Assembly: GCA_026770705.1 (NCBI GenBank)
Contig: JANJGN010000121.1
Location: 620,001 to 684,000, forward strand
From: Isurus oxyrinchus
Lineage: Eukaryota
Length of the DNA: 64,000 nucleotides
Direction: 5' to 3'
The notes beneath the pieces were generated by a model. It was not told the DNA's origin and did not search any database. It worked only from the letters and a program-made list of their open reading frames with translations. The position numbers and the translations under genes are program-made. Position 1 is the stretch's first letter, and each line of letters begins with the position of its first letter. Shown in pieces: positions 33,191 through 61,073 of this stretch.

Positions 33191-33519
33191 CTTGTCTAAA
33201 GAACATTGTACAAATTGCACAAAATTGCATCTGATGCCTGTGACTCATGCTATCATGAAGTTCATGCACACAACAGGAATATTTCTCGCTGTTTCTCGAC
33301 AGCAAGACAGCTTTGATATCACACCACCCACTGGCAAGTGTGTGCAGCTACAATGTGACATGTTTACATTGGAAATTTCTATTATAAAGATGGGCACAGG
33401 AATTCATCTGATTGGAAAACGTGACAACATGAAGTAATGTCTTTGAGCCAAGTATTTTGCAGCAAAACAAGAATTTTAATCTTTAAATATCTACAGAACA
33501 GGCTGAGCATTTTAATCAC

Positions 33520-34500: not shown

Positions 34501-34616
34501 ACTCGATGATACGGAGATGATTCTAACCAGGATTCTGACCAGTTTCATTACAACTTAACACAACATCACACGTTATTTGTCCGCACTGACTGACCAGATT
34601 GTTGCTGTACAAAGCT

Positions 34617-34756
34617 TCAAACAGTCTGTCGACTTCCTTTCACTGTTTGTCTCTCCCAGACACAGACTCCAGCGATAGTGATAACCACAGCCACAAGGAA
34701 TATCACAGCTCGTATTCCCAGGATCAGGATCACGTGCAGAATCTCTCCTCCACTGT
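34617..34756 (-). CDS. Gene B: TM + short tail exon with intramembrane Arg (activating type)
   Basis: tgtgttctctag acceptor, phase 1; xSGGEILHVILILGIRAVIFLVAVVITIAGVCVWERQTVKGSRQTV-stop; Arg codon CGA at 34712-34710; no Tyr in tail. The ORF track shows a different frame. Confidence 0.85.
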
Positions 34757-35873
34757 CTAGAGAACACACAGAAAGAAATCATCACTGACTCTCCGCTTTC
34801 AATCTCTCACTCTGGCTGAACAATCAAGCTTCATATCACTGCAACATTTGCTGTAATATTGACCCATCCACTGGGATTCAATGTGGAATGAATGTTTTCA
34901 TTGTAAACACTCTAAGAGTGGACAATCGGAACTTTCCCCTTAGCGTGGAACATTGGTGAGAATGGATCATTGTGCTGTTGGACTCCCTGTCCAATGTTTC
35001 TCTCCATCGCTGTGTACAGGATTGTGCTGTAGAAAATTCTGGAAACGTTTAGTGCAGGGTGGAAATCCATCTCGGACGCGTGTGCGAATCGGGCAGGATT
35101 GAGATGGACTCCCCCACGGATTACAACCCCCGCTTAATAAACAGTTCCAATCTTTACCCAGAGAGAGGGGAGAATGTGGAACTCGCTCCCACAGGGAGTG
35201 GTCGAGGTGAATAGAAGCAAATTAGGATGGGAAATTGCTTGAAAAGCTGGGAGATGCAAGGGTTAAGTGCTACCGTGCCACCACTGGTGGGAGAGTGTAA
35301 CTACAGCGTGACGTTTACATAGGCAATCCCCATTATGAACTTGGACATTGGACATCATGTGCAAATTGGGCTCTGGAAAGGTGAGAACATGATGTAAGCT
35401 TTTCACCAACAGAAATTCCTTCGTAAACCTCTCCATCTCTCTCTTACTGTCAGATACTCAAACAACATTTCACACAGAATTACATAAGGAGGAGTTGGGA
35501 CAGGTGACTGGTCAAAGGGTTAGATTTCAGGAAGCTTTTTAAAGGAGGATAGAGAGTTAGAGAGGCAGAGAGTATCTGTGAGAATCTCTGTGCATCTGGG
35601 TGTCTAATAGACTTTGCAATTTCCGCGTTCTTCCATAAACTTGAAAGGGAACACAATTCCCAGAATCCATGTCAACTCTCCGGTGCAGCACTGAGGGAGG
35701 TCAGGTAACCCACGGGGGAGAATGTGTTAGTGTGTTTGTTTGTGAGTGTGTCCTTTTGTGTGCTCATACATGTGGGATTGTGTGTCTGCACGTGTCTATT
35801 TAGGTTTGTATAATTGTGTGTGTTTGTGTAGTGTTTGAATCTGAGAGAGCTGTTGAAGTCTGTGTACACTCAC

Positions 35874-36026
35874 GTTCCACAGTGATGGTTATGAACCCCT
35901 CCACTGCTCCATGTTCATTCTCTGCCACACACTGATAGTCTCCAGTGTCCCTGGATGTAACGTGAGGAATCACCAACCACAGCTCATTGTTGGAACTTGT
36001 TCTGTTCATTGTGATATTCAGATGTC
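35874..36026 (-). pseudogene. Gene B: 3' half of a gene A-type C2 exon (pseudo-exon)
   Basis: MNRTSSNNELWLVIPHVTSRDTGDYQCVAENEHGAVEGFITITVE with gtgagt donor; 5' half and acceptor replaced by unrelated repeat-like sequence, in-frame TGA at the junction. Confidence 0.85.
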
Positions 36027-36349
36027 AGGGCAGGACTCAACATGACAGATCACAGGTTTCCCAACAGGAAGTGAACAACAATTTATATTTAATGGGAAGA
36101 GAGTGCTGATTGATTGGCAAGTGGTCTCTGATTGGAGGCGGTGTTGCCATGGAAAATAATGTGTGCGAGCTGTAAAGTTTAGGCAGATTGTCTCTTCATT
36201 CAGCAATAATCAAATAAAGATCAGTTAACTTCTATCGACTGTGAAGCACTTTGAGAGGTCTGAGAATGTAGATACTGAGAACGGGCTGCACTGTCAGAGG
36301 GTCAGCGCTGAGGGAGTGCTGATGTCGAATGAAAGGTGTCGGTACTTAC

Positions 36350-36646
36350 CTTGCACAGTTAGTACGAGGGTCCGCTCCGATGAAACAGATGGATATCTCA
36401 CTCTGCAGCTGAGAGTTTGTCCGTGGTGTTTGAGTGATGGGATCAGGGTCAGAACAGAAGTATAGGTCAGAGTGACACCATGCTGAGTTACAGTGTTTGA
36501 CACTGATCCAGGTACATCAGTGGGAGTGTCCCAGGTTAAGACAGGTGCTGCTGTTCCATTGCACGTTGTGTTGAAGGTGCAGCTTACATCCACACGCTTT
36601 CCTGCAATAATTTCAGCAGGGAATATTGTGGGTTTATCTGTGAAAT
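36350..36646 (-). CDS. Gene B: Siglec domain-2-type C2-set exon
   Basis: tctgttag/gtaagt, 297 nt, phase 1-1; DFTDKPTIFPAEIIAGKRVDVSCTFNTTCNGTAAPVLTW...HHGQTLSCRV; C-x5-C plus F-strand Cys as in Siglec domain 2. Confidence 0.92.
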
Positions 36647-37459
36647 CTAACAGACAGAGAATGGATCCTTTTAGAGAAATATAACGTGAAGCATCAGTTC
36701 AAATAGAAACCACAGTCCCACAAGAGAAAGCACTTTTACAAGGATGATATCAGAACTGAGAGATTACAACGATCAGGAGAGAATTTCCTATTTTCAGACT
36801 TAGTGGATTTTCTGTCTCTCAGATGAATTCACTTCCACTTTGAGACAATTGAATTGACAATCCCAGGTGAGGGTGGGGGAGCAGCTCACAGTTCCTGACA
36901 CACTGGCTTGTTACTTTCTCCGAAATCTGCCAGATTTAAATTCTATCCTGTTCCCAGCAGGAGAGAATCCATTTGAACCAATAACTGAACCGGCATCTAA
37001 AACAGATGATCAGGTTATTGATCACATTGCTGTTTCTGGGAGCTTCCTGTGAATAAATTGGCTGCTGTGTGTCCCATATTACAACAAGGGCAACATTTCA
37101 AGAATTATTTCATTGGTTGTGAAACCATTTGCAACGTACAGAGGTGTTGAAAGGCGCTATAGAAATGCGAATCTTTCTTTTGTCGATATGTAAAACTGTC
37201 AAACACGGTTAGGGAGATCGATGGGAGTGGATAACCTGATAACATTGATGGACACAGTCAATACTTTTAATCATTGATATTAAAGTGAGTATTAGAGGTT
37301 GCTTTAGGACTGAACTGGAAGCTATCACCAGGTTATTGAGAATCAGACAGTGTGCTATAATAAGCTGTGTTTTGTGTTAATATGTAAACGTCACAGTTTG
37401 CGTTATTTCCCATTGAGTGTTGAATGTGAATTGTTGAGTAATTATAACACAGCACTTAC

Positions 37460-37828
37460 CAGAAACGTGAAGCTGGGTTACAGGGTAATAGTTATGGTTC
37501 GGACCATTGTCAAATTCTATCCTGAAAAAATAAGGTCCTGCATCTTCCCGTCTGATGTTGTTTATAATCAGGGAACAGTCGCCATCTTTCAGGTCTCCAG
37601 ACAGCCGGGTCCGATGGTGGAACCGTGGTAACTCGTGACTGTGATCCTTGGAGTGAAAGGCAATGGGAGCCCAGGGAATCTGTTTCTCATTATTAAACCA
37701 GAGTCCACCTCGCGGTTGGTTTTCCAGACACGATGGATAACTGTAATGACAAGGAATCTGTACACACGAACCTTCCTGCGCTGTCACCTCTCGTGGAGTG
37801 TCACCGTTCCACTCTTGTGAGGGTTCAA
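37460..37828 (-). CDS. Gene B: Siglec V-set exon (proximal), essential Arg present
   Basis: ctctccccag/gtaagt, 369 nt; VTAQEGSCVQIPCHYSYP...RTRLSGDLKDGDCSLIINNIRREDAGPYFFRIE; B- and E-strand Cys, no F-strand Cys. Confidence 0.93.
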
Positions 37829-37879
37829 CTGGGGAGAGAAATCTCAATATTTAACTCTGGATGGTTTGTGGATCCACTA

Positions 37880-38710
37880 GACTCAAATTTACAGATGAGG
37901 CTGAATTGGGGGGATGGTCAATACTGAGGAGGACTACAACAAATTATTTTGGCAGGAAGAATAGAAAAACAGGATATTATTTAAATGGAGAGAGGCTGCT
38001 GAATGCAGTACAGAGGGATCTGGGTGTCCTTGTACATGAATCACAGAAAGTCAGCATTCAGGAAAACCACGGAATGAGGAAGGCAAGTGGAACGTTGGCC
38101 TTTATTGCAAAGGGATGGAGTATAAAAGGAGGGAAGTCTTGCAACAGCTGCACAGGGTGAGATTGTATCAGGAGCAGTGTGTACAGTTCTGGTCTCCTTA
38201 CTTAGGGAGGGATAGACTCTGCATTGAAGGCAGTTCAGAGGAGGTCCACTGGGCTGATTCCTGGGATTAAAGGGTTTGTCCTGTGAGGAAATGTTGAGCA
38301 GGTTGGGCCTGTATCCATTGGAGTTTAGAAGAATGAGGAGTGACCTTATTGAAACATATCCGATTCCGAGGGGGCTTGACAGGGTGGATGCTGGGAGGAT
38401 GTTTCCCCCTCGTGGGGGAATCTAGAACCAGGGAGCACAGTTTCGGAATGAGGACTCTCCCATTTAAGACTGAGATGAGGAGGAATTTCCTCTCTCAGAG
38501 GGGCACTAGCCTGTGGAATTCTCTTCCCCAGACAGCAGTGGAGGCTGGGCCATTGAATAGACTCAAGGCTGAGTGAGGCAGGTTTTTGATCGACAAGGGA
38601 GTCAAGGGTTTGGGGGACAGGCAGGAAAATGGAGTTAAGGCCACAACCAGATCAGTAGAGCAGGCTGGAGGGGCCGAATGGCCTGCTCCTGTCCCTATTT
38701 CTTATGTTCC
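37880..38710 (+). mobile_element. CR1 LINE 3' part
   Basis: YYLNGERL..QRDLGVLVHES; 3' tail. Confidence 0.85.
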
Positions 38711-38784
38711 TACATTCTTACCATCTTAAAATATTAAAGCTGCAGAATAAACATGCAAGTGACTGACCCGCTCGACCCACCTTC

Positions 38785-40800
38785 CATCAGGGGCTGGAGG
38801 AGGTTACACAGATAGGGAGGTTTGTGGGGGCTGTAGGAGGTAACAGAGATAGGGAGGGCTGTAGATACTGGAGGAGGTTACGCAGATAGGGAGGGTGGTA
38901 GGACCTGGAGGAGGTTGCAGAGATAGGGAGGGCTATAGGGATTTGAGGAGTTTATGGAGATGGGGAGCGTGTAGGGACTGGAGGAGGCTGCAAGGGCAGA
39001 GAAGGTTTTAGGGGCAGGAGGAGTTTACAGGGATAGGAAGAGTTGTAGGGGCTGGACGGATTGCAGAGGTAGGGAGGGTTGGAAAGGCTGGTGGAGGTTC
39101 CAGAGGTAGGGAAGGTTGCAGGGACTGGAGGAGTTTACAGAGATGGGGGAGCTTTTGGGGCAGGATGGGGTTACAGAAATAGGGAGGTTTGTAGGGGCAG
39201 GACGAGGTTAGATAGATATGGAGTGTGGCTGGGGCTGAGGGAGGCTACAGAGATAGGGAGGGTTATAATGGCTGGAGGAGGTTACAGAGATAAAGGAAAC
39301 TCTTAGGGACTGGAGGAGGTTACAGAGATAGGGAGGGTTGTAGTGGGCTGGAGGAGGTTACAGAAATATGATGGGTTGTAAGAGATGGACCAGCTTACAG
39401 AGATAGGGAGAGGTATTCGGTCTGGAGGAGGTTGCAGAGATAGGGGAGGTTGTTAGGACTGGAGGAGGCTACAAATATCGCGAGGGTTATCGGGGCTTGA
39501 GGAGGTTAAAGAGATAGGGAGGGGTGTTGGGTCCAGAGGAGTTTGCAGTGATAGGAATGGTTTTCGGGATTGGAAGAGGGTACTGAGATAGGAGGGTTGT
39601 AGGGACTGGAGGAGGCTCCTGAGATAGGGAGGGTTGTAGGGACTGGAGGAGGCTCCTGAGATAGGGAGGGTTGTAGGGACTGGAGGAGGCTCCTGAGATA
39701 GAGAGGGTTGTAGGGACTGGAGGAGGCTCCTGAGATAGAGAGGGTTGTAGGGACTGGAGGAGGATCCTGAGATAGGGAATGTTGCCGTGGATGAAAATAA
39801 AGGAGGAGATTACTGTAATAGGGAGGAAAAATATTCAAAAATTTGGACATTGAGACTTTGCTTGACCAGGAGCCAGTCTCGGGCATCGAGCAGAGCGGGT
39901 GATAAGGGAACGGGACTTGGTGTGAGTAAGGACGTGGTCAGAAGTTTTGGATGGCCTCAAGTTTATGGAGTGTAGAGCGTGTGTTGGAACAGTCGAGTCT
40001 GAAGGTAATGAAGGCGTGGATGAGGGTTTCAGCAGCAGATGAGCTGAGACAGGGTGAAGTCTTGTGATGTTACGGAGGTGGAAATAGACGGTGTTAGTGA
40101 GGGCGCAAAATTGAGGCCGGAAGCTCATCTCAGGATCAAATGGGACAACAAAGCTGTGAACAGATTGGCTTCAATCTCAGAGAGCTGCCAGGGAGAGGAA
40201 TGGAGTTGGTAGCGAGGGAACAGAGTTTGGAGCGGGGAATGAAGACAATGGCTTCAGTCTTTCCAATATTTAATTGGAGGGAATTTCTGCCCATCCAGTA
40301 CTGGATGTCGGATAAGCAGCCTGATAATTTAGCAGCAGTGGAGGAGTCGAGAGAGGTGGTGGTGAGGTAGAGCTGGGGATCCTCAGTGGACAGGTGAAAA
40401 CTAACACTGTTCAGATGATGCTGCAAAGCCATTGCAAGTGATTCTCTGGCTACGATGAGATGGATAAGAATGGAGCCAGGGGAGAGCAGTCCCACCCAGC
40501 TGGACGACAGTGGAGAGGTGTTGGAGGAGGATGGTGTGGTCGAGCGTGTCAAAGGCTGCAGACAGATCGAGAAGGACGAGGAGGGAAAGTTGACCTTTGT
40601 CACAGTCACACAGGATGCCATTTGTGACCTTGATAAGAGCTGTTTCAGCACAGTGGCTGGGGTGGGAACCTGATTGGAGGGATTCAAACATGGAGCTCCA
40701 GGAAAGATGGGAACGGATTCGGGAGATGGAAACACGTTCAAGGACTTTGGAGGTGAAAGAGAGGCTGCAGATGGGACGGGGGTTTACACAGACAGTGTGA
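38785..40800 (-). mobile_element. L2-clade LINE fragment (39790-40800) with adjoining 37-bp minisatellite (38785-39780)
   Basis: FESLQSG...ETALIKVTN..L...LVLLDLSAAFDTLDH; LQLNIGKTEAI. Confidence 0.85.
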
Positions 40801-41055
40801 GGGGTGGAAGGTGTAGTGGGGAGGAGACACTTCACTCAGGGGGGAGGTGTCATCACCCCTCAGCTCGGTTTACGTTACAGCTATGATGTGGATTCAATCA
40901 CAGACAATAAGCTCATGGATCTGGGAGCAGAAATAGACAAATCATTAAAAATAGTGACGCTGGTTAACACGGCCAAAAAACAAGCAAATCAAACACTATT
41001 ATTTCCCATTGAGTGTTGAATGTGAATTGTTGAGTAATTATAACACAGCACTTAC

Positions 41056-41433
41056 CAGAAACCTGAAGCTGGGTTACAGGGTAATAGTTATGGCTCGGAC
41101 CATTGTCAAATTTTATCGTGAAAAAATAATATCCTGCATCTTCCCGTCTGATGTTGTTTATAATCAGGGAACAGTCACCATCTTTCAGGTCTCCAGACAG
41201 CCGGGTCCGATGGCGGAACTGTGGCAACTCGTGACTGTGACCCTTGGAGTGAAAGGCTATAGACCATTTAGACCATTTGTTCCGTATGTACCTTCTCATT
41301 TTCCAGATTCCGACATGTGGTTTCTTTACCAAATCTGATGGATAACTGTAATGACATGGAATCTGTACACACAAACCTTCCTGCGCTGTCACCTCTCGTG
41401 GAGTGTCACCTTTCCACTCTTGTGACAATCCAA
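41056..41433 (-). CDS. Gene B: Siglec V-set exon (distal), essential Arg replaced by Thr
   Basis: ctctccccag/gtaagt, 378 nt, open; VTAQEGLCVQIPC...DCSL...DAGYYFFTIK. Confidence 0.9.
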
Positions 41434-42057
41434 CTGGGGAGAGAAATATCAATATTTAACTCTGGATGTTTTGTTGATCCACTAGACTCGATATCCACCC
41501 CCTCCATCACTCGGGCACAGTGGCTGCAGTGTGGACCATCTACAGGACACACAATGAACTCCACAAGATATCACACCAGATGGAAGAGAATCCTGGACAC
41601 AAAAGCGGAAAAGTTCATTCTACATTGGTTCATGGTCCTCAGGACCCTGTTTGTGCAGAAGTCTGCTCTCCAACAGAACTGAAGTTGGGGACAATGCATT
41701 TGGAATTCCACTGTCCGGGGCATTGGGTTAACTTGCTGATTTTGTTTTAAATCCAACATCTATTTTTGGTCTGTTGCCTTAAAGGGAGTGTAACTGGGAG
41801 TCAGGTTAATTAGGAATTTTAGGAGTTATGATAGCAGTAATTGTAGTTATGTATGTGCTTGAAATCTTTTATTTTGATGACAAATATGTTAATTTATTGT
41901 TTTAAATCTCTAAAGGTATTGGTGGAGTTATTGCTTATGAATTAAGTGCACACATCTCATAATAAATACAAATTGCAAAATCATTATGATAGTGTGACCA
42001 GGTTTCTCTCAAGGACTTGGTCTGCCTGGCACACATCACCTGCCAAGTGATAACACT

Positions 42058-43349
42058 GTTGTAATATGCCTTTCAGGGACAGCAGCATGACATCACTCGA
42101 GGGGAAGTGTGTCATGTGATTTTTAGGAACTGGTGTTCGCTTAAGTAAGTTCTATGTGTATTTGTGTGCGTTAGGCAAAAGGTCTATCTTTAAGTTCAAG
42201 TTTAGTTTGTATTTCTGTATTTGGGTGTTGAGAAAAGGGGGAACTTGTGTTAAAAAGAAGCCAGCATTCCATTGAGGTTTTATGACTGTTGAAGGGAAGT
42301 CAAAACAAATACAAGGTGTAAGGAACTATGCTGTTGCCTAGCAACAGTGATCCAGAGGGAGGGACACACAGAGACCGAGAAAAACAGAAAAGTACTTTCA
42401 GTTCTGTTGAAAGGAGTTGCCAGGAGAAGCAGCAAAGGAGCGGGATAGATAGTCAGTCCCAAAGTAAAGAAGAAGCCAAATCTATCGAGTTTGACAGGAG
42501 AAAGGGCCCAAGAAAACCTTCTAGTCAAATCTGGAAAAGGCCCTGTAAAATGAAGTTAAGAGTGAGGAGCAGAAGAAGGCTTCAAGCATAAAGGGAGAAG
42601 CAGCAGGACACAGACCTAAAGCAAAATAGGCTTGTGAGAAGGCAGAAGATCCTAGGAGACACCACAGTTTGGTGACTCATTACTACGGCCATGTGAAGCC
42701 ATGGTGTTCCATTGACACGGCTGAGCATTGGAGAGACAGGGCGTGGAAGGAAGGCTGAATGCACGTGGCGATCCAGGGGGCAGGAACATGGGAAGGAGAG
42801 TTTGAAATAGTGAAAGTGGACCCTTGTGGAAGGTGTCTGAGTGAAAGTGTCATGTTGGAGGAGACTCCAAAGTGAGTTCTTGGAGAGTGGAGATTGGAAA
42901 CCCTCATATGAAAGAAGCTTTTCAGTGAGACTGGTTGGCTCACAGTGCAACAAGCGTCTGGGGACAAATGAGACATAGAATTTGTTTCAAGTGGGCTCTG
43001 CCACTTGCTTTCAGAATGTGGCGTCCCTGACCACAGGTCGTCTATAGTTTTACATCAACTGTGTACTTAGTGTGAACATGAGAGTATAAGATAGTTACCG
43101 TAACTTGTGTTCTGCTTATGAATCTGTAAAGGGATAGATCTGGGTGAATCAGTAATGTCATATAGTTTGTCTTTCCTAGTTTAATAAATGTTTTATTCTT
43201 TTGTTAGAAGTTCATCAGATGACTCCTGTGACTCTGTTCAGTAGCCGCACTCCACATTCCTAAATAAAAAATAAAAGTTAGGACCTATCAAGTTGAGTTC
43301 CACCCTGGGATCTGACTTGCCCAGTAGTAACATCAGCTGGGATGGTAAC
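42058..43349 (+). mobile_element. Solo LTR-like element
   Basis: tgttgtaa...ggtaaca termini, AATAAA at ~43183 and ~43263. Confidence 0.55.
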
Positions 43350-45700
43350 ACCATCCAGTCCAAGTCTCACTTTGGCCTGTGAGCAGAACACAGCTCACAC
43401 AGTTTGGCTGCAGGTGTCTCCCAGCTTTCTATCCTTGTATATCTGTTCTTATGTCCCTATTCTAAATAACTGAACCCACAATGTATTTACCCAATTCCGT
43501 ATCAGTGGCTGGTGCCTTTATATCATTATAAAAACACAACATGGTGATCAGTGGTGGCCAAACATTCTGGCAGCAAGATTCAGTACAGGTATGACGTGGT
43601 GAACAGGCTGAGATCGAGTTACATGACATGAGACAACCCTCGACGCTTTGGTCAGACCACAACAGAGACACAGCATCAGAGAGGGTTGAAATCGCAGTGT
43701 ACTGACTGCTCAGGAATCCTTTGAAGACACAGTGACGGGAAAGAGCTCAAGTAAAGAGCTGGGGAGCAGACGGATCCCTCGTGGTGAGATTACAGCACAC
43801 GGCCTGTAGGTCAGTGAGTGGGACAGTGTGTATCGCCAGGACCAGCAGCGGGTTAGCTCAGTCAGGGAAGGCGAGTGACCAGGGTGTGGGCTGGATCGAT
43901 AGTGAGCGAGGGAGAGTCAAACACACAAAAACCATTATAAAAATCAGCCCAGAGAAGTTAGTGATTATAACGGGCGGCTTCGAGATTGCTGAACAGCAAA
44001 TTGAATAAAAACAAAGACTCCTTTACTCCGTGGTGTGTTCCTGCCACAACCCGTCTCCGTGGGCAGAGCTTCGGAAAAGCACACGAAAGGGGCTAAAGTA
44101 ACACTCATCCCAGGTCCTGTAGGAGAAGGAAGGTCAAAGGAATATTGTCAGAATGTCCACGAAATTCCCCAGTTTGAACTGGGATGTAGCTGACCGACTA
44201 TCTGAATTCAGAATGTTTAAACAGCGTACAGAGCTCTGGTTTCCTGATTCAGGTGTGACTGAACCAGACGAGCAAGCCATAAAAATCCACCTCGCGATTG
44301 GGAATGAAGGTCTACACAGACTGAACACGTCAGAATTAACAGCAGAAGAGCGAAAGGGTCCCCAATAGATATGGATGATATTGGAAGACAGGTTCGGAAT
44401 CAGGTGAAACTCCATATTCATCAACTAGAGTTTATGTCATTTCATCAGCCTACACAATCCATAGACCACTTCATCAGCCGATGTAGAGAAAAGAGTACGC
44501 ACTGTGATTTCAAACACAGAGCCTGCAGACAGAGTTGTTGAGTTGGTGATCACATCCACTCCCATGGAAGCCTTCCAGAAAGATCTGCTAGATAAGACCA
44601 AAACCTATAGCATTGAAGAGTTACTCAAGGATGGACATAAATACGAACTGATCCTCGCAGGTCAACGAAGCTTACAGGTCCTCAGTACTACATCAATTGT
44701 TGACACACTCACTAGAACATCCAAACCTAGTGAGACGTGTGGAAGGTGTGGCCTTCTGCAGGAACCAAGGAAATGCCCAGCTTTCCACCAATCCTGCAAG
44801 GCTTGTGGCAGAAAGGGCCATTGACAGCGGCAGGGCACTAGAGCAAAGGCTGATGCAGCTACAAAGAGCCGTGCGCTGATCCAAACAAACCCTGCACAAC
44901 GGGGAAACTTCAAGCAATAAGAATGACCATCCGCTATCCCATCAGGAACATATACATGTGGTGACTGACAAACCAGGAAATGGCGATGATGTACACGACG
45001 AGTCTAGGACCGGTGATCGATATTCCACCTCTCACACATATCCTGACGTGGCTTGCCAATAAATTGTGGATTGTGGTCTTTATTGATCTCTCTGGGCACA
45101 TCAAATAAACTGAAAATGTTCCCATAGGGGTGGGATTTTCTGGCCCCACCGACTTCCAAGATTGACCGGTCCGGCTGAAAGCCAATGGATTTATGTCTGT
45201 CCCAGTCTCAGAAACTATCCCATAAACTCAGTTCATGACATAACATTGAAATATGCAGAAAGATTCAACAATATTGGCAGTTTGAAGGGAGCTGCAACAT
45301 TACACCTGCAGGAGATTGCAAGTCTGTCAGACTCCTTGCATTAAAATTAATACAGTCCAACTTTGCCACGCTATATTGAGCCTTAAATGGCCAATAATTT
45401 CTATGCCTTCCAGGTTCATTTGCTCTCTTCTAATTTTGGCTGTGCATCTCTCTCTGTTGAACCTCCTCTCGGGATCCCATCCCCTGCCATATTAGTTTAA
45501 AGCCTCCTCAATTGCATCAAGGGTGTAATGTCAATTGAAACCAGGGACAACATCAAAGAATGACAATCCCACAGATCAATGTGAGCAATTAAAGAAACCT
45601 CCAGACAATTTTGCCACCACAAGATCTCGACATAACAGCAGATTACCTCTACGCTTTAGAGACTCAAATATTCAACAGATCTATACACTTATGTAATTGT
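43350..45700 (+). mobile_element. Gypsy LTR retrotransposon remnant (gag 44153-44830)
   Basis: aaaacacaaca/tggtgatc LTR-PBS-like junction at ~43541; gag with CGRCG..CPAF...CKACGRKGH knuckles; stops and frameshifts. Confidence 0.75.
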
Positions 45701-46714
45701 CAAGAATTATGAAAATGATACCAGGAACCTCTTGTTCCCTGTCCTTCTCAAAGATCCATCCCTGCAGCAGGAGCCTGAAGAGTTACTGATGTGGGGCTTA
45801 ATTTATCAGATTGTAGAATGATCCGGAACAGAAGGATGCCATTTGGCCCATCGAGCCTGTGCTGGGCCTTTGAAAGATCTGTCCAATTAGTCCCACTCTA
45901 ACCTCTGCTCTCTCCTCCACAGCCCTGCAAAATGTCACCTTCAAGTATTTATCCAGTTCCCCTTCTGAAAGTTCCTGTTGAATCTGCTTCCATCGCTCTT
46001 TCAGGCAGTGAGTCAATGGTCTCTCTCTGAGCTGCAAAGTGCTAATGTTCTGAGAACTTTAAACACTGCAGCAGATCAGAGACAATCATGATAACTCAGA
46101 ATATTTGACACCTTTACACCCAGTCAGCTTTGCCTTTCTTCTCTCTTTCAGTTATCTTGCTCCCTTATTGAAGTATCTAGCAAGGTGAGAATGGACAGGA
46201 AGTGTGACACTGAACAGCCTGTCTATTCTAGGAGCTGCTGTGTTGTCTTCATGGGAAATTCTGACAAAATCAGCAAAAGACACAAAATTTCAGGGCATTG
46301 TTATCCGAGTCCCAGCATCAGGATAGACTTCATCCCCCCGTTGGTATTCCTGATTCTCTATTCAGCCGATCGCTCCCCTGTCACTGGCTGAACTACACTG
46401 GCTCCCAGTCCAGCAATGACTCAAATTTCAAATTCTCATCATTGATTTCTTACCCCACCATCCCCCCTCTACACTCTCTATCTGTGTAACCTCCTCCAAC
46501 CCTAAAAACCTCTGAGATCTCTGCACTCCTCCAATTCTGCTGTCAGACAGGGAGTCAGTGTATATCAGTGAGCACAGGGGTGATGGGTGAATGGGACTTG
46601 GTGTGAGTTTGTGCACTGGGTCACTGCTGAATCGGTTCCCAATCACACTCAATAAGAATGATCTTTTACAAAGACTATTAGCCATAAACCAATCCGAGCT
46701 GACGATGTTATTAC

Positions 46715-46754
46715 CTTGGAGAAGTGACAGGAGGAAGTAGGATTTCCCGATCAT
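46715..46754 (-). CDS. Gene B: signal peptide exon
   Basis: MIGKSYFLLSLLQ with donor caag/gtaata, phase 1; joins V exon to give ...LLQVGLSQEW; acceptor tttctctttcag just upstream (exon start 46796). Confidence 0.8.
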
Positions 46755-47350: not shown

Positions 47351-47574
47351 CAGTGAGAAGATCGAGGATGTTTTGTGCTCTCAGCAAAACGCTTACCATG
47401 TGATGATCTGTCAGCTCATATTTGGGCAGCTGTAGTCATGAAGCTTCTCCATTGGCTCCGTGGGATTAGACTCCTGCCCCTCACCTCGGAGGCTGAAACT
47501 CAGGCGATAAGAGTTCCCAATACAGGTCTCTGGCCTTATGATACATTTCAACGATCCCTGTTATCATTACAGAG

Positions 47575-50095
47575 TGAGTGCTGCACTGTCAGCGGGAGTT
47601 TACTGTGGGAGTGCTGCACTATCAGAGGGTCAGTAATGTGGGAGGGCTGCACTGTCAGAGGGTCAGTAATGTGGGAGTGCTGCAACATCAGAGCGTCAGT
47701 AATGAGGGAGTGCTGCACTATCAGAGGGTCAGTAATGTGGGAGTGCTGCACTATCAGAGGGTAAGTAATAAGGGAGTGCTGAACTGTCGGTGGGTCTGAA
47801 CTGAGTGAGTTCCGCACAGTTGGAGGGTCAGTATTGAGGGGGTGCCGGACTGTGGGAGGGTTAGTACTGAGGTAGAGTGGAGTGTGAGGAGATATCCTTT
47901 CATGGCAAAGTTTAACTGGAATTTATTTAAACACAATTCTTGTACTGTGTGTTATTGCAAAAGAAAGGATTTGAGGAACTAAGTCTTGTTCCCGTAAGCC
48001 TAAAAATAATTTTCACGGATTTCAATGATTTAGCAATGAAACCTCCCTCTTTGTGCACCAGTCTTGATAGAAACAACTCGCTCAGCACAGTGGGAGGGTG
48101 AGTACTGAGGGAGTGCTGCACTGTGGGAGGGTGAGTACTGAGGGAGTGCTGCACTGTGGGAGTATGAGTACTGAGGGAGTGCTGCACTGTGGGAGAGTGA
48201 GTACTGAGGGAGTGCTGCACTGTCAGAGGTTCAGTAATGAGGGAGTGCTGCACTGTCAGAGGGTCAGTAATGTGGGAGGTCTGCACTGTCAGATGGTCAG
48301 TAATGAGGGAGTGCTGCACTGTCAGAGGGTCAGTAATGTGGGAGGGCTGCACTGTCAGAGGGTCAGTAATGTGGGAGTGCTGCACTGTCGGAGGGTCAGT
48401 ACTGAGTGAGTTCCGCACAGTTGGAGGGTCAGTATTGAGGGAGTGCCGGACTGTGGGAGGGTTAGTACTGAGGTAGAGCGGAACGTGAGGAGATATCCTT
48501 TCATGGCAAAGTTTAACTGGAATTTATTTAAACAGAATTCTTGTACTGTGTGTTATTGCAAAAGAAAGGATTTGAGGAACTAAGTCTTGTTCCCGTAAGC
48601 CTAAAAATAATTTTCACGGATTTCAATGATTTAGCAATGAAACCTCCCTCTTTGTGCACCAGTCTTGATTGAAACAACTCACACAGCACTGTGGGAGGGT
48701 GAGTACTGAGGGAGGGCTGCACTTCGGAAGAGTGAGTACTGAGGGAGGGCTGCACTGTGGTTTGTGAGTACTGAGGGAGTGCTGCACTGTGGGAGAGTGA
48801 GTACTGAGGGAGTGCTGCACTGTCAGAGGATCAGTAATGAGGGAGTGCTGCACTGTCAGAGGGTCAGTAATGTGGGAGGGCTGCACTGTCAGAGGGTCAG
48901 TAATGTGGGAGGTCTGCACTGTCACGTGGTCAGTAATGAGGGAGTGCTGTACTATCAGAGGGTCAGTAATGTGGGAGGGCTGCACTGTCAGAGGGTCAGT
49001 AATGTGGGAGGGCTGCACTGTCAGAGGGTCAGTAATGTGGGAGGTCTGCACTGTCAGATGGTCAGTAATGAGGGATTGCTGCACTGTCAGAGGGTCAGTA
49101 ATGTGGGAGGGCTGCACTGTCAGAGGGTCAGTAATGTGGGAGTGCTGCACTGTCGGAGGGTCTGTACTGAGTGAGTTCCGCACAGTTGGAGGGTCAGTAT
49201 TGAGGGGGTGCCGGACTGTGGGAGGGTTAGTACTGAGGTAGAGCGGAGAGATATCCTTTCATGGCAAAGTTTAACTGGAATTTATTTAAACACAATTCTT
49301 GTACTGTGTGTTATTGCAAAAGAAAGGATTTGAGGAACTAAGTTTTGTTCCCGTAAGCCTAAAAATAATTTTCACGATTTCAATGATTTAGCAATGAAAC
49401 CTCCCTCTTTGGGCATCAGTCTTGATTGAAACAACTCGCACAGCACTGTGGGAGGGTGAGTACTGAGGGAGGGCTGCACTGTGGGAGGGTGAGTACTGAG
49501 GGAGTGCTGCACTGTGGGAGGGGGAGTACTGAGGGAGTGCTGCACTTCGGGAGAGTGAGTACTGAGGGAGGGCTGCACTGTGGGAGGGTGAGTCCTGAGG
49601 GAGTGCTGCACTGTGGGAGGGTGAGAATTGAGGGAGTACTGCACTGTGGGAGCGTCAGTACTGAGGGAGTGCTGAACTGTCGGAAGGTCAGTAGTGAGGG
49701 AGGGATACAGTGTCAGAGGGTCAGTACTGAGGGAATGCTGCACTGTCAGTTTGTCAGCACTGTGGGAGTGCTGCACAGTCAGAAGGTGTGTACCGAGGGA
49801 GTGCCGAACTGTCGGAAGGTCAGTAGTGAGGGAGGGATACAGTATCAGAGGATCAGTACTGAGGTAATGCTGCACTGTGGGTGAGTGAGTACTGAGGGAG
49901 TGCTGCACTGTCAGATTGTCATCCATGAGGGAGTGCTGCACTGTCAGAAGGTCAGTGCTGACGGGGTGCTGCACTTGAAAAGGGTCAATAATGAGGTAGT
50001 GCAGCACTGTCAGAGGGACAGTAATGAGGGAGCGCTGCACTGACGGAGGGTCAGCACTGAAGAAACGCTGCACTGTCAGTTCTGAGCGTGGTCTG
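47575..50095 (+). repeat. 33-bp minisatellite arrays interleaved with a triplicated ~190-bp spacer
   Basis: Spacer gatatcctttcatggcaaag...gaaacaactc at ~47890, ~48491, ~49249. Confidence 0.9.
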
Positions 50096-50789: not shown

Positions 50790-51400
50790 AATAAGCTTTT
50801 CATAAATCGAGGCATTGAGTACAAACACAGGGAGGTTATGCTGAACATTTATAAAGCTCTGGTTAGGTCACAACTAGAGTATTGTGTCCAGTTCTGGTCT
50901 CCCCACTTTGGGAAGGAAGTGAGGGTCCTTGAGAGGGTGGGGAGGAGATTGAGCAGAATGGGTCCAGGGATCAGGGATTTTAGCTACAAGGTTGGGTTGG
51001 AGAAGCTGGGGTTGTTCTCCTTGGAGCAAAGGAGATTGAGGGGGGATCTGATCGAGGTGTACAAGATGATGATGGGTTTAGATAAGGCAGACAAAGAGAT
51101 GCTGTTGCCATTAGCTGATGGTACAAGGACTGGGGGACACAGATTGAAGGATTTGGACAGGGGGTGATGTGAGAAGGAACTTTTTTACACAGCGAGTGGT
51201 AATGAGCTGGAACTCGCTGCCTACGAGGATGGTGGAAGTGGAGACGATGAACGATTTCAAAAGGAAATTGGATGGACACATGAGGGGAAATAAACTCACA
51301 GGGATACGGGGATAGAGCGGGGGAAATGGGACTGAGTGGATTGCTCTACAGAGAGGCAGCATGGACTCAATGGGCTGAATGGGCTCCTACTGTGCTGGAA
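50790..51400 (+). mobile_element. CR1 fragment (paralog of 33895-34500)
   Basis: Near-identical sequence and junctions. Confidence 0.88.
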
Positions 51401-51518
51401 TACCTCTCTGATATGAAGGTGATTCTAACCAGGACACTGACCAGTTTCATTACAACTTAACCCAACATCACACGTTATTTGTCCGCACTGACTGACCAGA
51501 TTGTTGCTGTACAAAGCT

Positions 51519-51658
51519 TCAAACAGTCTGTCGACTTCCTTTCACTGTTTGTCTCTCCCAGACACAGACTCCAGTGATAGTGATAACCACAGCCACAAGG
51601 AATATCACAGCTTGTATTCCCAGGATCAGGATCACGTGCAGAATCTCTCCTCCACTGT
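51519..51658 (-). CDS. Gene C: TM + short tail exon, Arg changed to Gln
   Basis: Same acceptor as gene B; xSGGEILHVILILGIQAVIFLVAVVITITGVCVWERQTVKGSRQTV-stop; CAA at 51614-51612. Confidence 0.85.
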
Positions 51659-52779
51659 CTAGAGAACACACAGAAAGAAATCATCACTGACTCTCCGCTT
51701 TCAATCTCTCACTCTGGCTGAACAATCAAGCTTCATATCACTGCAACATTTGCTGTAATATTGACCCATCCACTGGGATTCAATGTGGAATGAATGTTTT
51801 CATTGTAAACACTCTAAGAGTGGACAATCGGAACTTTCCCCTTAGCGTGGAACATTGGTGAGAATGGATCATTGTGCTGTTGGACTCCCTGTCCAATGTT
51901 TCTCTCCATCGCTGTGTACAGGATTGTGCTGTAGAAAATTCTGGAAACGTTTAGTGCAGGGTGGAAATCCATCTCGGACGCCTGTGTGATTCGGGCAGGA
52001 TCGAGATGGACTCCCCCACGGACTTACACCCCCCGCTTAATAAACAGTTCCAATCTTTACCCAGAGAGAGGGGAGAATGTGGAACTCGCTCCCACTGGGA
52101 GTGGTTGAGGTGAGTAGTAGCGAATTAGGAAGTGAAATTGCTTGAAAAGCTGGGAGATGCAAGGGTTAAGTGCAACCGTGCCACCACTGGTGGGAGAGTG
52201 TAACTACAGCATAACGTTTACATAGGCAATCCCCATTATAAACAAGGACATTGGACATCATGTGAAATATGTGCACTGGAAAGCTGAGAACATGATGTAA
52301 GCTTTTCACCAACAGGAATTCCCTTCCTAAACCTCTCCACCTCTCTCTTACTCTCAGATACTCAAACAAAATTTCACACAAAATCACGTAAGGATGAGTT
52401 GGGACAGGTGACTGGTCAAAGGGTTAGGTTTCAGGAAGCTTCTTAAAGGAGGATAGAAAGTTGGAGAGGCAGAGAGTATCTGTGAGTATCTCTGTGCATC
52501 TGAGTGTCTGTAGTAGACTTTGAAATTTCCATATTCTTCCATTAATATGAAAGGGAACACAAATCCCAGAATCCAGGTCAACTCTCCGGTGCAACACTGA
52601 AGGAGGTCAGGAAACCCACAGGGCAGTATGTGATAGTGTATTTGTTTGTGAGTGTGTCTTTGTGTGTGCTCATAGATGTGGGATTGTGTGTCTGCAGCTG
52701 TCTATTTAGGTCTGTATATTTATGTGTGTTTGTGTAGTGTTTGAATCTAAGAGAGATGTTGAAGTCTGTGTACACTCAC

Positions 52780-52932
52780 GTTCCACAGTGATGGTTATGA
52801 ACCCCTCCACTGCTCCATGTTCATTCTCTGCCACACACTGATAGTCTCCAGTGTCCATGGATGTAACATGAGGAATCACCAACCACAGCTCATTGTTGGA
52901 ACTTGTTCTGTTCATTGGGACATTGAGATGTC
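52780..52932 (-). pseudogene. Gene C: 3' half of a gene A-type C2 exon (pseudo-exon)
   Basis: Same breakpoint and in-frame TGA as in gene B; HLNVPMNRTSS...DTGDYQC...ITVE, gtgagt donor. Confidence 0.85.
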
Positions 52933-53253
52933 AGGGCAGGACTCAACAAGACAGATCGCAGGTTTACCACAGAAAATGAACAACAATTTATATTTAAAGG
53001 GAAGAGAGTGCTGATTGGGTGGCACGTGATCTCTGATTGGAGGAGAGTTGCCATGGAAAATAATGTGTGCGAGCTGTAAAGTTTAGACAGCTTGTCCCTT
53101 CATTCAGCAATAATCAATTAAAGATCAGTTAACTTCTATCGACTGTGAAGCACTTAGAGAGGCATGAGAATGTAGATACTGAGAACGGGCTGCACTGTCA
53201 GAGGGTCAGCGCTGAGGGAGTGCTGATGTAGAATGAAGGGTGTATGTAATTAC

Positions 53254-53550
53254 CTTGCACAGTTAGTACGAGGGTCCGCTCCGATGAAACAGATGGATAT
53301 CTCACTCTGCAGCTGAGAGTGTGTCTGTGGTGTTTGAGTGATGGGATCAGGGTCAGAACAGAAGTATAGGTCAGAGTGACACCATGCTGAGTTACAGTGT
53401 TTGAGACTGATCCAGGTACGTCAGTGGGAGTGTCCCAGGTTAAGACAGGTGCTGCTGTTCCATTGCACGTTGTGTTGAAGGTGCAGCTTACATCCACACG
53501 CTTTCCTGCAATAATTTCAGCAGGGAATATCGTGGGTTTATCTGTGAAAT
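53254..53550 (-). CDS. Gene C: Siglec domain-2-type C2 exon (proximal copy)
   Basis: tctgttag/gtaatt, 297 nt, open, near-identical to 36350-36646. Confidence 0.9.
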
Positions 53551-54865
53551 CTAACAGACAGAGAATGGATCCTTTTAGAGAAATATAACGTGAAGCATCA
53601 GTTCAAATAGAAACCACAGTCCCACAAGAGAAAGCACTTTTACAAGGATGATATCAGAACTGAGAGGTTACAATGATCATTAAAGAATTGTCTATTTTTA
53701 CACTTGTTGAATCTCTGTCACTCAGATTAATACACTCTCACTCAGTGACCCTTGATTTGACCAGACTGGGTGAGGGTGGAGGAACAGCTCACAGCTCGGG
53801 GAGAACAGACTCAGCATTTGGAAAAGGATATAGAGACACTGGAGAGGGTGGTAAAAAGCTTCACAAGGATGATCTCCGCAATGTGAGGCTTTACCTATCA
53901 GGAGAGGATGAACAGGCTGGGTCTCTGTTCTCTTGAACAGAGAAGGCTGAGGGGTGACATCATTTGATCTTTGAAGTAATGAAAGGTTTTGATCGAGTAG
54001 ACATGGAGAGAGTGTTTCCACTCATCACAATGAACAAAACCAGAGGCTGACAGTATAACATCCTCACTAATAAATCCAATGGGGAATTCAGGAGAAACTT
54101 CTTTACCCAGAGAGTGGGGAGAATGTGTACTTCAAGAATCACTTCATTGGCTGTGAATCGATTTAGGATCGTCCTGAGGTGGTGAAAGGCGCTATAGAAA
54201 TGTGAGACTTGGTTTTGTATTTTGAAAGCAGGTTTCCAAGGATGAGATGGGAACTGAGAGGTAACAACAATCAGCAGCAACTTTCCTATTTTCAAACTTG
54301 GTGGGGAATGTGTCACTGAGCTGAATACACTTTCACTCCCAGACCCTTGAATTGCCAACACTGGGGTGTGGGTGATGGAGCAGCCCACAGCTCATGGAAC
54401 CCTGGCTCATCATTCTCTCAGAGATCTGGGTCACTGATCCCATTGCTCTCTGTGGGAGCTTCCTGTGTACAAACTCACTGCCACGTTAGACAGTGACTAT
54501 ACTTCAAGAATTTCTTCATTGTCTGTGAAGTGATTTGAAGTTTGTTGAGGTGGTGAAAGGTGCTATAGGAATGCACGTCCTTCTTTTGTCAAATTGTTAG
54601 ACTTTTAAACAGGATTAGAGAGACTGATGGGAGTGGATAGCCTGATAACATTGATGGACACAGTCAATACATTTAATCATTGACATTAAAGTGATTATTA
54701 GAGGTTGCTTTAAGACTGAACTGGAAGCAATCACCAGGTTATTGAGAATCAGACAGTGTGTAAAAATAAACTGTGTTTTGTGTTAATATGTAAACGTCAC
54801 AGTTTGTGTTATTTCCCATTGAGTGTTGAATGTGAATTGTTGAGTAATTATAACACAGCACTTAC

Positions 54866-55230
54866 CAGAAACATGAAGCTGGGTTACAGGATAGTAGTTG
54901 TATCTTTTCCTGCCGTCAAATTCTATCCTGAAAAAATAAGGTCCTGCATCTTCCCGTCTGATGTTGTTTATAATCAGGGAACAGTCGCCATCTTTCAGGT
55001 CTCCAGACAGCCGGGTCCGATGGTGGAACTGTGGTAACTCGTGACTGTGATCCTTGGAGTGAAAGGCAATGGGAGAACCCAATTTGTGTGTTTCTTTATT
55101 ACACCAGATTCCATCTCGTGGTTTGTTTTCCAACTCTACTGGATAACTGTAACGAAATGGAATCTGTACACAGATTCCTGCGCTGTCACCTCTCGTGGAG
55201 TGTCACCTTTCCACTCTTGTGACAGTCCAG
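54866..55230 (-). pseudogene. Gene C: frameshifted V-set exon
   Basis: Splice sites intact but 365 nt (net -4 after VTAQE) giving an early TAG; B-strand Cys also TGT>TTT; YFFRIE retained downstream. Confidence 0.87.
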
Positions 55231-55404
55231 CTGGGGAGAGAAAACTCAATATTTATCCCTGGATCCTCATTGTTTAATGAATCTCTTTGGATCTTCTTTG
55301 TCTAAGGAATCTTTTTGGATCCTCATTGTCTAAGGGATTATTTCTGATCCAAACCCCATATTGTTGTATTGTTGATTCCGATGCAGCATTGTAGACTGAC
55401 TCGT

Positions 55405-58150
55405 CCCCCAAAAAACTGTGTATCTCAGCCTTGAATATAATTAATGACCCAGCCTCTGCAGCTCTCTGCGGTATAGAATTCCACACATTCACTACCCTCT
55501 GAGAGAAGAAACTCCTCATCTCTGTCTTAAATGGGTGACCCCTTACTCTGAGATTATGCCCTCTGGTCCTAGACTCTCCCACAAGGGGAAACAACCTCTC
55601 AGCATCTACCCTGTCAAGCACCCTAAGAATCTTATATGTTTCAATAAGGTCAGCTCTCATTCTCCTAAACTCCAATGAGTACAGGCCCATCCTACTCAAC
55701 CTCTCCTCATATGAAAATCCCTCCATTACTGGGATCAACCTAGTGAACCTTCTCTGGACTGCCTCCAATGCCAGTACATCTTTCCTTAGATAAGGGAACC
55801 AAAACTGTTCACAGTATTCTAGGTGTGGTCTAACTAGTGCCTTGTATAGTTTTAGCAAGGCTTCCCTATTTTTATACTCCATTCCCTTTGAAATAAAGGC
55901 CAACATTCCACCTGCCTTCCCTATTAACTGTTGAACTTGTATGTTATCTTTCTGATGACCCCCAAATTCCTCTATGCTTCAGCTTTCCAATGTCTTTCTC
56001 CATTGAAATAATATTCAGCTCCTCTATACATCCTGCCACAGTGCAGCAGCTCACATTTTCCCACATTATATTCCATCTGCCAAGTTGATGCCCACTCACT
56101 GAACCTGTCTATGTCCCTCTGTAGACTCTTCGTGTCACCCTCACCGCTTGCCTTCCCATCTATTTTTGTGTCATCCACAAACTTGGCGAAAGTACATTAA
56201 TTTCCCTCATCCAAGTCATTAATATATATTGTAAATAATTGTGGCCCCAGCACTGATCCCTGTGGCAATCCACTGGTTGCCATCCTGAAAATGCCCCCTT
56301 ATCCCAACTCTCTGACTTCTATTAGTTAGCCGATCCTCTATCCATGCTAATATACTGCCCTCATCACCATGGGCTCTTATCTTATTAAGGAGCCTTATAT
56401 GTGGTAATTTACTGAATGCCTTTTGGAAATCCAAATATATTACATCTACTGGTTCCCCTTTATCTATCCTGTTTGTTACCTCCTCAAAGAATTCTAATAA
56501 ATTTGTCATGCATGATTTCCCCTTCATGAAGCCTGTGTGTGATTAAATTATGCATTTCTAAATAGTCTGCTATTACATTCTTTATAATGGACTCTAACAT
56601 GTTCCCAATGACAGATGTTAAACTCACTGGCCTATAGTTACCTGTTTGTTGTCTCCCTCCCTTTTTGAATATGGGTGTTACTTTGGCAGTTTTCCAATCC
56701 TCTGGGACTTTCCCAGAATCTAAGGATTCTTGGAAGATTAAAACCAGTACATCCACTATCTCTGCATCTACTTCCTTTAATATCCTAAGATGCAACCTAT
56801 CAGGTCCAGGTGACTTATCAGCCTTGAGACCCATTAGTTTCGCTAGCGTTATTCTCTAGTGATAGTTACTGTATTTATTTCCTCTCCCCACCCCCCTTTT
56901 GCCCCTTGATTATTTAGTATTTTTGGAATGATATTAGTGTGTTCTACCGTGAAGACTGATGCAAAGTATTTCTTCAACTCCTCTGTCATTTCCTGGCTCC
57001 TCATTATTATTTCCCTAGCCTAGTTCTCTAAGGGGCCCATGTTCACTTTGGTCTCTCTCTCCCTTTTTATATATTTAAAGAAGCTTTTATTGTCCTTTTT
57101 TATATCAATTGCTAGTTTACCTAGTTTTCTCCCTTTTTCTTTATTTTTTGGTCATCTTCTGTTGGTTTTTAAATCTCTCTCAATCCTCTGGCTTACCACT
57201 AATCTTTGTCATGCTGCATGTTTTTTCATTCAATTTGACACACACCTTAACTTCTTTGGGTAACCCAGGTTGGTTTATTCTCTTCCTACAATCCTTCTTT
57301 CTCACTGGGATATATCGTTGTTGTGAGTCATGAGCTATTTTCTTAAAGATCTGCTATTGTTCATCCACCATCTTTTCTGCTAAACCCCTTTCCCAGTCCA
57401 CTCCAGACAACCCTGTCCTTATGCCTTTGTAATTACACTTATTTAAGTCCAGCACAGTTGTTTCCGACCCAGGTTTCTCAGTCTCAGAGGGAATGCTAAA
57501 TTGTACCAGGTTATGGTCACTGTTTTCCAGGGGATCATTTATTCTGAGATCATGTATTAAACCTGCCTCATTACACATTACCAGATCCAAAATAGCCTGA
57601 TCCCTGGTTAGATACACGACATATTATTCCAGGAAACTGTCTTGAATACACTCTATGAATTCTTGCTCATGGCTACCTCTGCCAATTGGGTTTTCCCAAT
57701 CTACTTGAAGATTAATGTACTGCCTTTTTTACATGCCCTCATTATCTCATGATTTATTCTCTGTCCTACAGCCGAGCTACAGTCATGGGGCTGATAGACC
57801 ACTCCCACCAGTTCCTTGTTCTCCTTGTTATTCATTACCTCGAGCCATATGGATTCTATACCCTCCGATCCAAGATCATTTCCTGCTTTCGTACTTATTC
57901 CATCTCCTATTAACAAAGCTACCCCACCACCTTTCCTTCCTGCCTGTCTTTTTGAAAAGTCACATACCCCTGAATATTTATTTCAAAGCTTTGATCTCCT
58001 TGTAACCATGTCTCCATAATGGCTATAAGATCAAACCCATTAACCTCTATTTGTGCCTTTAATTCATTTATGTTGTTCCAAATACTATGTGCATTTAAGC
58101 CAAGAGCCATTAATTTTGTCTTTTTATCATTTTCCTCCCTCTGACACTAT
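55405..58150 (-). mobile_element. Near full-length, decayed CR1 ORF2 (endonuclease + RT)
   Basis: LNAHSIWN..LIAIMETWL, ILDLVMCN, SDHN, KSPGPD, NYRPVSLTS, YLDFQKAF, DDTK, LEAVQRRFTRLIP. Confidence 0.92.
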
Positions 58151-58309
58151 TTGCTGATGTATTTTAATGTTTGGACGCTGTGTACCCACCTGTCACACAC
58201 TGGGTATCATCACCAAAACAGCTATCCTGCAATGCTGACAAATCCTTTTGCTTTGTAAGCCTACACATACCCTCTCCAGAACACTCTCCCCATCTATTTA
58301 GTATAAAGG

Positions 58310-59551: not shown

Positions 59552-59848
59552 ATTGCACAGTTAGTACGAGGGTCCGCTCCGATGAAACAGATGGATATCT
59601 CACTCTGCAGCTGAGAGTGTGTCCGTGGTGTTTGAGTGATGGGATCAGGGTCAGAACAGAAGTATAGGTCAGAGTGACACCATGCTGAGTTACAGTGTTT
59701 GAGACTGATCCAGGTACGTCAGTGGGAGTGTCCCAGGTTAAGACAGGTGCTGCTGTTCCATTGCACGTTGTGTTGAAGGTGCAGCTTACATCCACAGGCT
59801 TTCCTGCAATAATTTCAGCAGGGAATATCGTGGGTTTATCTGTGAAAT
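59552..59848 (-). CDS. Gene C: Siglec domain-2-type C2 exon (distal copy)
   Basis: tctgttag/gtaagt, 297 nt, open; KPV instead of KRV. Confidence 0.9.
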
Positions 59849-60707: not shown

Positions 60708-61073
60708 CAGAAACGTGAAGCTGGGTTACAGGATAGTAGCTGTATTTATTTCTGCTGTCAAATTCTATTCTGAAAAAATAAGGTCCTGCATCTTCCCGTC
60801 TGATGTTGTTTATAATCAGGGAACAGTCACCATCTTTCAGGTCTCCAGACAGCCGGGTCCGATGGTGGAACCGTGGTAACTCGTGACTGTGATCCTTGGA
60901 GTGAAAGGTTATAGACGATGTTCTCCATTCCTCATTATTAAACCAGATTCCAACTCGTGGTTGCTTTTCCAAATGTGATGGATAACTGTAATGACATGGA
61001 ATCTGTGTACACGAACCTTCCTGCGCTGTCACCTGTTGTGGAGTGTCACCTTTCCACTCTTGTGACAGTCCAA
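60708..61073 (-). CDS. Gene C: Siglec V-set exon, essential Arg present
   Basis: ctctccacag/gtaagt, 366 nt, open; VTAQEGSCTQIPC...DAGPYFFRIEFDSRNKYSYY. Leader expected just beyond 64000 by paralogy with gene B. Confidence 0.92.

Follow-up and report, generated by a model that had tools for sequence, protein, structure and literature searches.

Whether a receptor that has lost the charged residue of its membrane anchor persists as a ligand-binding decoy, or belongs to a gene in decay, is the question raised by a 64,000-nucleotide stretch of the genome of the shark Isurus oxyrinchus (the window; contig JANJGN010000121.1, positions 620,001 to 684,000), where a Siglec-like module, C, carries Gln at the position at which a second gene, B, carries Arg. 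A first-pass annotation had read this difference as a CpG-type transition from Arg to Gln that left C with a charge-less anchor and an intact Arg-bearing V domain, and hence as a possible sialic-acid-binding decoy or adhesion receptor. Here we follow the substitution through the window, the genome-wide family to which both genes belong, and the structure of the gene in which it sits.

A single base exchanges Arg for Gln in the anchor exon

The comparison rests on the following features, in window coordinates:

34617..34756, minus strand: transmembrane exon of gene B, with Arg, the comparison copy
51519..51658, minus strand: C-module exon for the transmembrane segment and short tail, 45 codons, with Gln at the family's Arg position and Thr at the Ala/Thr site
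51612..51614, minus strand: Gln codon CAA of C, changed base 51613; its CGA (Arg) counterpart in B lies at 34712-34710

On the minus strand of the assembly, gene B reads GGA ATA CGA GCT (34718-34707) and gene C reads GGA ATA CAA GCT (51620-51609), just as had been claimed. The two exons (34756-34617 in B and 51658-51519 in C, 140 bases each) differ at two bases only, 51613 (Arg to Gln) and 51575 (Ala to Thr), so that Ala to Thr is indeed the only other coding difference, and the step from CGA to CAA is, again as proposed, a CpG transition of the C-to-T type. The exon product, SGGEILHVILILGI[R/Q]AVIFLVAVVITI[A/T]GVCVWERQTVKGSRQTV followed by a stop, comprises the anchor and a short tail that in C contains no tyrosine. 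The Ala-to-Thr difference is a common family variant with 50 exact copies in the genome, and a neighboring 30-mer has 200. A junction from 53254 to 51658 with canonical ends is present, among the joints listed, in contigs of two sequencing runs guessed to be RNA (one sample), and supports the exon limits at the level of the family rather than for copy C specifically; these joints span 50900-55300 and do not distinguish one copy from another.

The nature of the family is best read from gene B:

34617..46754, minus strand: gene B, a single open frame with leader 46754-46715, Va 41433-41056, Vb 37828-37460, C2 36646-36350 and the Arg-bearing transmembrane exon

The 17 best PDB matches of its Vb are Siglec-5, -7, -8, -10, CD33, MAG and sialoadhesin, and the YFFR motif of Vb aligns with that of Siglec-5 and -7; we take the YFFR arginine to be the sialic-acid-contacting arginine of the Siglec V domain. 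Thr replaces this residue in Va of B, as it does more generally in the outer V of the tandem-V genes (window 41433-41056, minus strand; Va of L031-L034; L041), which reads YFFTIKF, the inner V keeping Arg. The Pfam domains (V-set, Ig_CD22 and C2-set_2) come in the order of an N-terminal Siglec-type V followed by C2-set, and the nearest database entries, shark models among which Carcharodon reaches 99% and Cetorhinus 97% in the C2 domain, are labelled Siglec- or CD33-like. An anchor with a basic residue, followed by a short tail devoid of ITIM, is found in B and in 212 of 217 genome copies, and C, with its Gln, departs from this pattern. With their YFFR-bearing V domain, C2 domain, basic anchor and short tail without a tyrosine motif, B and the 212 copies resemble Siglec-14, -15, -16, Siglec-H and mouse CD33 as described in PMC6890642, PMC13358205 and PMC13233462, the last two of which also supply the paired-Siglec background; an ITIM-type relative in the same window adds a similar setting. 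Unlike those receptors, the shark family has about 217 anchor exons in one assembly, and the likeness is one of sequence.

In the better studied systems the basic anchor residue pairs with two aspartates of an adaptor dimer with a strong preference for the exact side chain, and among type I receptors an Arg near the top of the helix goes with FcR-gamma and a central Lys with DAP12 (PMC1440944, PMC13107469); activating Siglecs have Lys or Arg in the anchor (PMC6890642). In intact members of the shark family the Arg would likewise pair with the aspartates of an ITAM adaptor dimer, of FcR-gamma/zeta or DAP12 type, to give an activating signal. Zeta/FcR-gamma-family anchor exons with the CYxLD aspartate occur at three places in the genome (L146-L148); they are of two kinds, one of which is present at two of the places. 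Arg stands at position 7-8 of the best hydrophobic 19-mers, so that the adaptor could be of FcR-gamma or of DAP12 type. By analogy with other receptors (PMC1440944, PMC6890642), an anchor that has lost its basic residue should no longer couple to an adaptor, and the K252A mutant of mouse CD33 reaches high surface levels free of Dap12 limits and does not repress phagocytosis (PMC6890642).

Arg is the ancestral state and Gln arose at a mutable CpG

A 28-base pattern around the codon has 217 exact matches in the genome. The first base of the codon is always C, five copies read CAA, and 212 encode Arg. Nine of the 120 database proteins listed bear the anchor, from Carcharodon, two Scyliorhinus species and two Chiloscyllium species, and all nine have Arg; a protein search restricted to the anchor region gave four proteins among seven candidates, none additional to those already found. 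Because 212 of 217 paralogous copies and 9/9 database proteins, which serve as outgroups, have Arg, this residue is the ancestral state at the site. The direction from Arg to Gln that the first-pass annotation had drawn from CpG mutability is thus upheld, and the check that it proposed, whether outgroups show Gln as ancestral, comes out for Arg in all nine proteins. The near-identical anchor exons are spread over contigs C52, C71, C121, C150 and others, in an array whose architectures include V-C2, V-V-C2, V-V-V-C2, V-C2-Ig and V-C2-V-C2.

Besides C, Gln is found in a separate clade of four copies:

L031-L034: C52:737 kb, C52:3200 kb, C121:1124 kb and C546:327 kb

Their mutual identity is 99.5-99.9% across 9.9 kb and about 99% across 20-30 kb; two of them lie 2.46 Mb apart on one contig, so that there are at least two distinct loci, and the remaining ones may be haplotypes. 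In each of the four, the leader-Va-Vb-C2-Ig-TM(Gln) exons are open and bounded by canonical splice sites, the tail has no motif, Thr stands in Va for the YFFR Arg that Vb retains, and an intron contains a truncated Ig remnant. In two of the four, another leader exon lies upstream of the first, at a distance of about 2.2 kb.

Units were examined for 104 of the 217 copies, mostly those heading the lists for contigs C52 and C71, along with targeted copies, with exons checked automatically within about 7-8.4 kb of the anchor, and the resulting counts of broken and open units are approximate: among the 99 Arg units, 35 have all found exons open and 64 are broken or incomplete. About two thirds of the units examined are thus broken or incomplete. 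Per-site CpG counts cover 101 copies, leaving out three with indels in the anchor exon (L047, L125 and L127, all of which keep Arg). Across its four CpG sites the exon shows a synonymous His change in 10 copies (4 changes), R>Q in 5 (2 changes), a synonymous Ile change in 1 (1 change), A>T in 24 (8 changes) and a stop at the tail Arg in 2 (2 changes), whereas V>M, a stop at the anchor Arg and R>Q in the tail, three of the eight possible changes, are absent from the 101 copies. L068 and L093 have a CpG stop in the anchor-exon tail and keep the anchor Arg.

Because the CpG sites of the exon change repeatedly, two origins of Gln are unremarkable and fit ordinary CpG decay. TGA is found at the Arg codon in none of the 217 copies; this absence, together with the missing CpG changes, fits mild constraint, weakly so with only two events at the codon, and, given that two events underlie the five CAA copies, we rejected the contrast of 0 TGA to 5 CAA as proof of selection. 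Diversity is 0.0126 in the exon (0.0136 in broken copies) and 0.0102 and 0.0167 in the neighboring intron. The high identity of the anchor exon was accordingly ruled out as a sign of selection, the adjacent intron being equally uniform, and because exon diversity equals intron diversity, the undamaged exon in C does not point to selection on the protein either. A block of ~470 bases around the anchor exon, with intron sequence included (about 34560-35040 and 51450-51950), has a diversity of 0.01-0.03 versus 0.07-0.23 beyond it, which may reflect a conversion tract, a splicing constraint or mixed-intron alignment further out.

Module C is the back half of a frameshifted gene

The gene that contains C consists, from its 5' end, of the following, with one LINE-like fragment and one remnant in between:

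64572-64533 (extended window coordinates, just beyond the window), minus strand: leader of the C-containing gene (L135)
60708..61073, minus strand: first V exon, same gene as V*, open, YFFR arginine kept (V-set E 2e-12, Ig_CD22 E 1.4e-11)
59552..59848, minus strand: first C2-set exon, same gene as V*, open, phase 1-1
55274..55978, minus strand: LINE reverse transcriptase-like fragment directly upstream of V*, seen in translation
54866..55230, minus strand: V*, a frameshifted Siglec-type V exon of 365 bases with a 4-bp deletion between 55175 and 55174
53254..53550, minus strand: second C2-set exon, open, 297 bases, phase 1-1 (PF08205, E 6e-9)
52775..52932, minus strand: 5'-truncated third-Ig exon remnant in the last intron, matching only bases 137-294 of the intact L031 exon

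The LINE reverse transcriptase label of the fragment at 55274..55978 is presumptive. The 5'-truncated third-Ig remnant has an intact donor and recurs in the last intron of B (about 35870-36026, minus strand), of C (52775-52932, minus strand) and of many units.

A search for leader exons matched only at 46754-46715, in gene B, and at 64572-64533, with none between these positions and, in particular, none between 59552 and 55230. C is the back half of a leader-V(61073-60708)-C2(59848-59552)-V*-C2(53550-53254)-TM gene and has no leader of its own. It is here that the proposal of an intact Arg-bearing V domain fails: the V exon adjacent to the anchor module (55230-54866) is frameshifted and runs into TAG at 55138-55136 after 30 codons, its YFFR motif lies downstream of the TAG and out of frame, and tblastn splits V* across two frames. 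Had the V exon at 61073-60708 been meant, it is open and keeps the essential arginine in frame, but the broken V* stands between it and the anchor. With all exons joined, translation stops at codon 266, nucleotide 795 of 1505 and two junctions before the end, and the decoy or adhesion receptor does not follow from C as it had been described. The V* frameshift is a disabling lesion, as would be expected of an unprocessed pseudogene, though a functional skip product may exist.

The splice sites of V* are ordinary, with a pyrimidine-rich acceptor and a GTAAGT donor as in the open V exons. Because all exons are phase 1-1, skipping of V* leaves an open 379-aa leader-V-C2-C2-TM(Gln) frame, and skipping of both V* and the second C2 leaves an open frame of 280 aa. 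V* also contains at least 11 cryptic in-frame AG sites, of which the one at 55177 would retain most of the domain; those near the 5' end of V* have no pyrimidine tract.

The frameshift likely predates the Gln codon

The identical 4-bp deletion is present at six places on five contigs of the genome, that is, in C and in five sisters (L042, L082, L130, L131 and L133), all of which have Arg. The sisters match C in exon order (leader-V-C2-V*-C2-TM) and share 97.0-97.7% identity with its module along about 9 kb; two of the five have a second frameshift in a C2 exon, and V* is the sole lesion seen in the other three and in C. In a phylogeny of 104 anchor regions from which the Arg/Gln site had been masked, C is nested among four sisters with support 100/99, and two Gln changes are needed, as forced by the starred branches. 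A single Gln change was found in 0% of 200 bootstrap trees, from a bootstrap that had not settled, and the AU test of one Gln clade gave a borderline p of 0.053, so that such a clade is not rejected. Because the deletion is common to five sisters that all keep Arg, the frameshift is likely older than C's Gln change.

Two positions near the codon complete the comparison. At base 51766, C agrees with the Gln clade and L082 and the four other sisters differ, although the base is also common in the family; 38 bases downstream of the site, C has the sisters' Thr base and the Gln clade has Ala.

Decay or decoy

The explanation that we favor, with a probability of about 0.62, is that the Gln of C is a neutral CpG change, likely later than the frameshift, in a gene that likely has no anchored product. 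A message whose stop codon lies far upstream of its last exon junction is, as a rule, a target of nonsense-mediated decay. After a C-to-T-type CpG change had created the Gln codon in the membrane-anchor exon of this shark Siglec-like gene, its V*-containing message would still meet nonsense-mediated decay or, alternatively, yield a short secreted V-C2 piece; the anchor exon would go untranslated, and Arg or Gln at this position would be immaterial. Rather than encoding a decoy, C is probably dead, and its state resembles the ordinary decay of copies in an immune gene array with rapid turnover.

Human precedent exists in SIGLEC16P, the null allele of activating Siglec-16, which likewise carries a 4-bp deletion (PMC5701461). 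The two share an activating-type Siglec, a 4-bp deletion in an extracellular exon, a truncated product without an anchor and a cluster shaped by conversion; unlike SIGLEC16P, the shark deletion lies in the second V, whose skipping would preserve the frame, and occurs in six paralogues, one of whose anchors has in addition lost its basic residue. Against a dead gene, C and three of five sisters show no lesion other than V*, the 379-aa skip frame is open, and the first V keeps its YFFR Arg.

The same observations lend themselves to an alternative in which V* is routinely skipped and leader-V-C2-C2-TM(Gln) is displayed at the cell surface independently of an adaptor, acting as a decoy or adhesion receptor that would bind sialic acid through a different V than the one of the first-pass annotation. 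A decoy from the C locus would depend on such skipping. The open frame with its Arg-bearing first V and the restriction of damage to V* in four of the six modules suit it, as does the finding that a Siglec is released from its adaptor once the basic residue is gone, as in mouse CD33 K252A (PMC6890642), and the existence of anchored forms without a signaling motif among the NITR and DICP of fish (10.1101/2021.06.11.448072). The normal splice sites of V*, from which skipping is not predicted, the further decay of two sisters and the lack of any transcript of this gene among the joints listed nevertheless make it unlikely.

A second alternative concerns the origin of the base rather than the fate of the gene. 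Gln could have been copied into C from the clade of four Gln copies by gene conversion over a short tract, in which case a single mutation would account for both occurrences and C would still be broken. Conversion is established for paired Siglecs (PMC5701461), a donor copy lies on the same contig about 450 kb away, C shares base 51766 with the Gln clade and L082 against four sisters, and the AU test leaves room for one Gln clade; yet C is of the sister type both in the Thr base 38 bases downstream and in the flanks further out, the base at 51766 is also common in the family, and a CpG transition requires no donor. We regard conversion as improbable.

An error of the assembly at the Gln base or the 4-bp deletion, both of which are known from the assembly and lie in a highly repeated array of 217 near-identical copies where collapse or mis-polishing is possible, is very improbable given that the deletion recurs at six places on five contigs in copies 2-3% apart, lies outside any homopolymer and is matched without difference over 55046-55198 by one public-run contig (which extends less than 31 letters past the deletion on one side and may come from the assembly's own sample), and that CAA is found at five places. 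Equally remote is the thought that Gln is not inert, its carboxamide driving helix self-association or weak adaptor binding in the skip form or the Gln clade: a single Asn, Gln, Asp or Glu can oligomerize model membrane helices (PMC1440944) and FcR-gamma is bound by several Fc receptors that lack a basic residue (PMC13107469), but assembly is highly sensitive to the basic head group, with Arg to Lys cutting it sharply (PMC1440944), and the idea presupposes expression.

These results move the decoy idea to a better target. From their sequences, the four members of the Gln clade are better candidates for charge-less decoys than C, although recent duplication of a block with a chance neutral change explains them equally well. 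They lie one base from about 200 relatives, at the predicted adaptor contact, and offer a natural matched pair for tests of adaptor coupling. What the clade would encode, an anchor without charge or ITIM, recalls the "functionally ambiguous" NITR and DICP of ray-finned fishes (10.1101/2021.06.11.448072), which, however, are different families, whereas the charge-less state in the shark is traced to one base change from an activating anchor. It also recalls the engineered mouse CD33 K252A, a Siglec anchor without its basic residue (PMC6890642); that is a laboratory alanine mutant with shown surface expression, whereas the shark Gln is natural and known from sequence.

More broadly, though we consider it doubtful, the CpG of the Arg codon may be a recurrent switch from activating receptor to signal-dead ligand-binding decoy that has flipped at least two times, in the Gln clade with its four intact, recently multiplied genes and in V*-skipped C. 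If true, the Gln forms would add to the activating and the ITIM-bearing Siglecs a third class with a buffering role.

That a 4-bp deletion can kill an activating Siglec, and that anchored receptors without a signaling motif exist in fish families, is already known (PMC5701461; 10.1101/2021.06.11.448072). In a literature search whose coverage excluded most subscription papers, nothing on shark Siglec anchors appeared among the titles and the opening lines of abstracts, and the word "shark" is absent from the available portion of PMC13358205.

Other features of the window

On the plus strand, positions 1623-7219 hold the 3' half of an inhibitory-type relative with three Ig exons and an uncharged anchor (4867-4965), whose tail has two tyrosine motifs, ELFYANI and TEYAQI. 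A divergent Siglec-like V exon fragment, about 30% identical to the V of the array, lies at about 15968-16249 (plus strand) and is adjoined by a retrotransposon-like open reading frame at 16209-16916, presumably a retrotransposon fragment. Arrays of a ~33-base repeat occur in introns and downstream of anchors (about 47560-50080, 58300-59340 and 32840-33200), and this repeat is very abundant in public sequencing runs.
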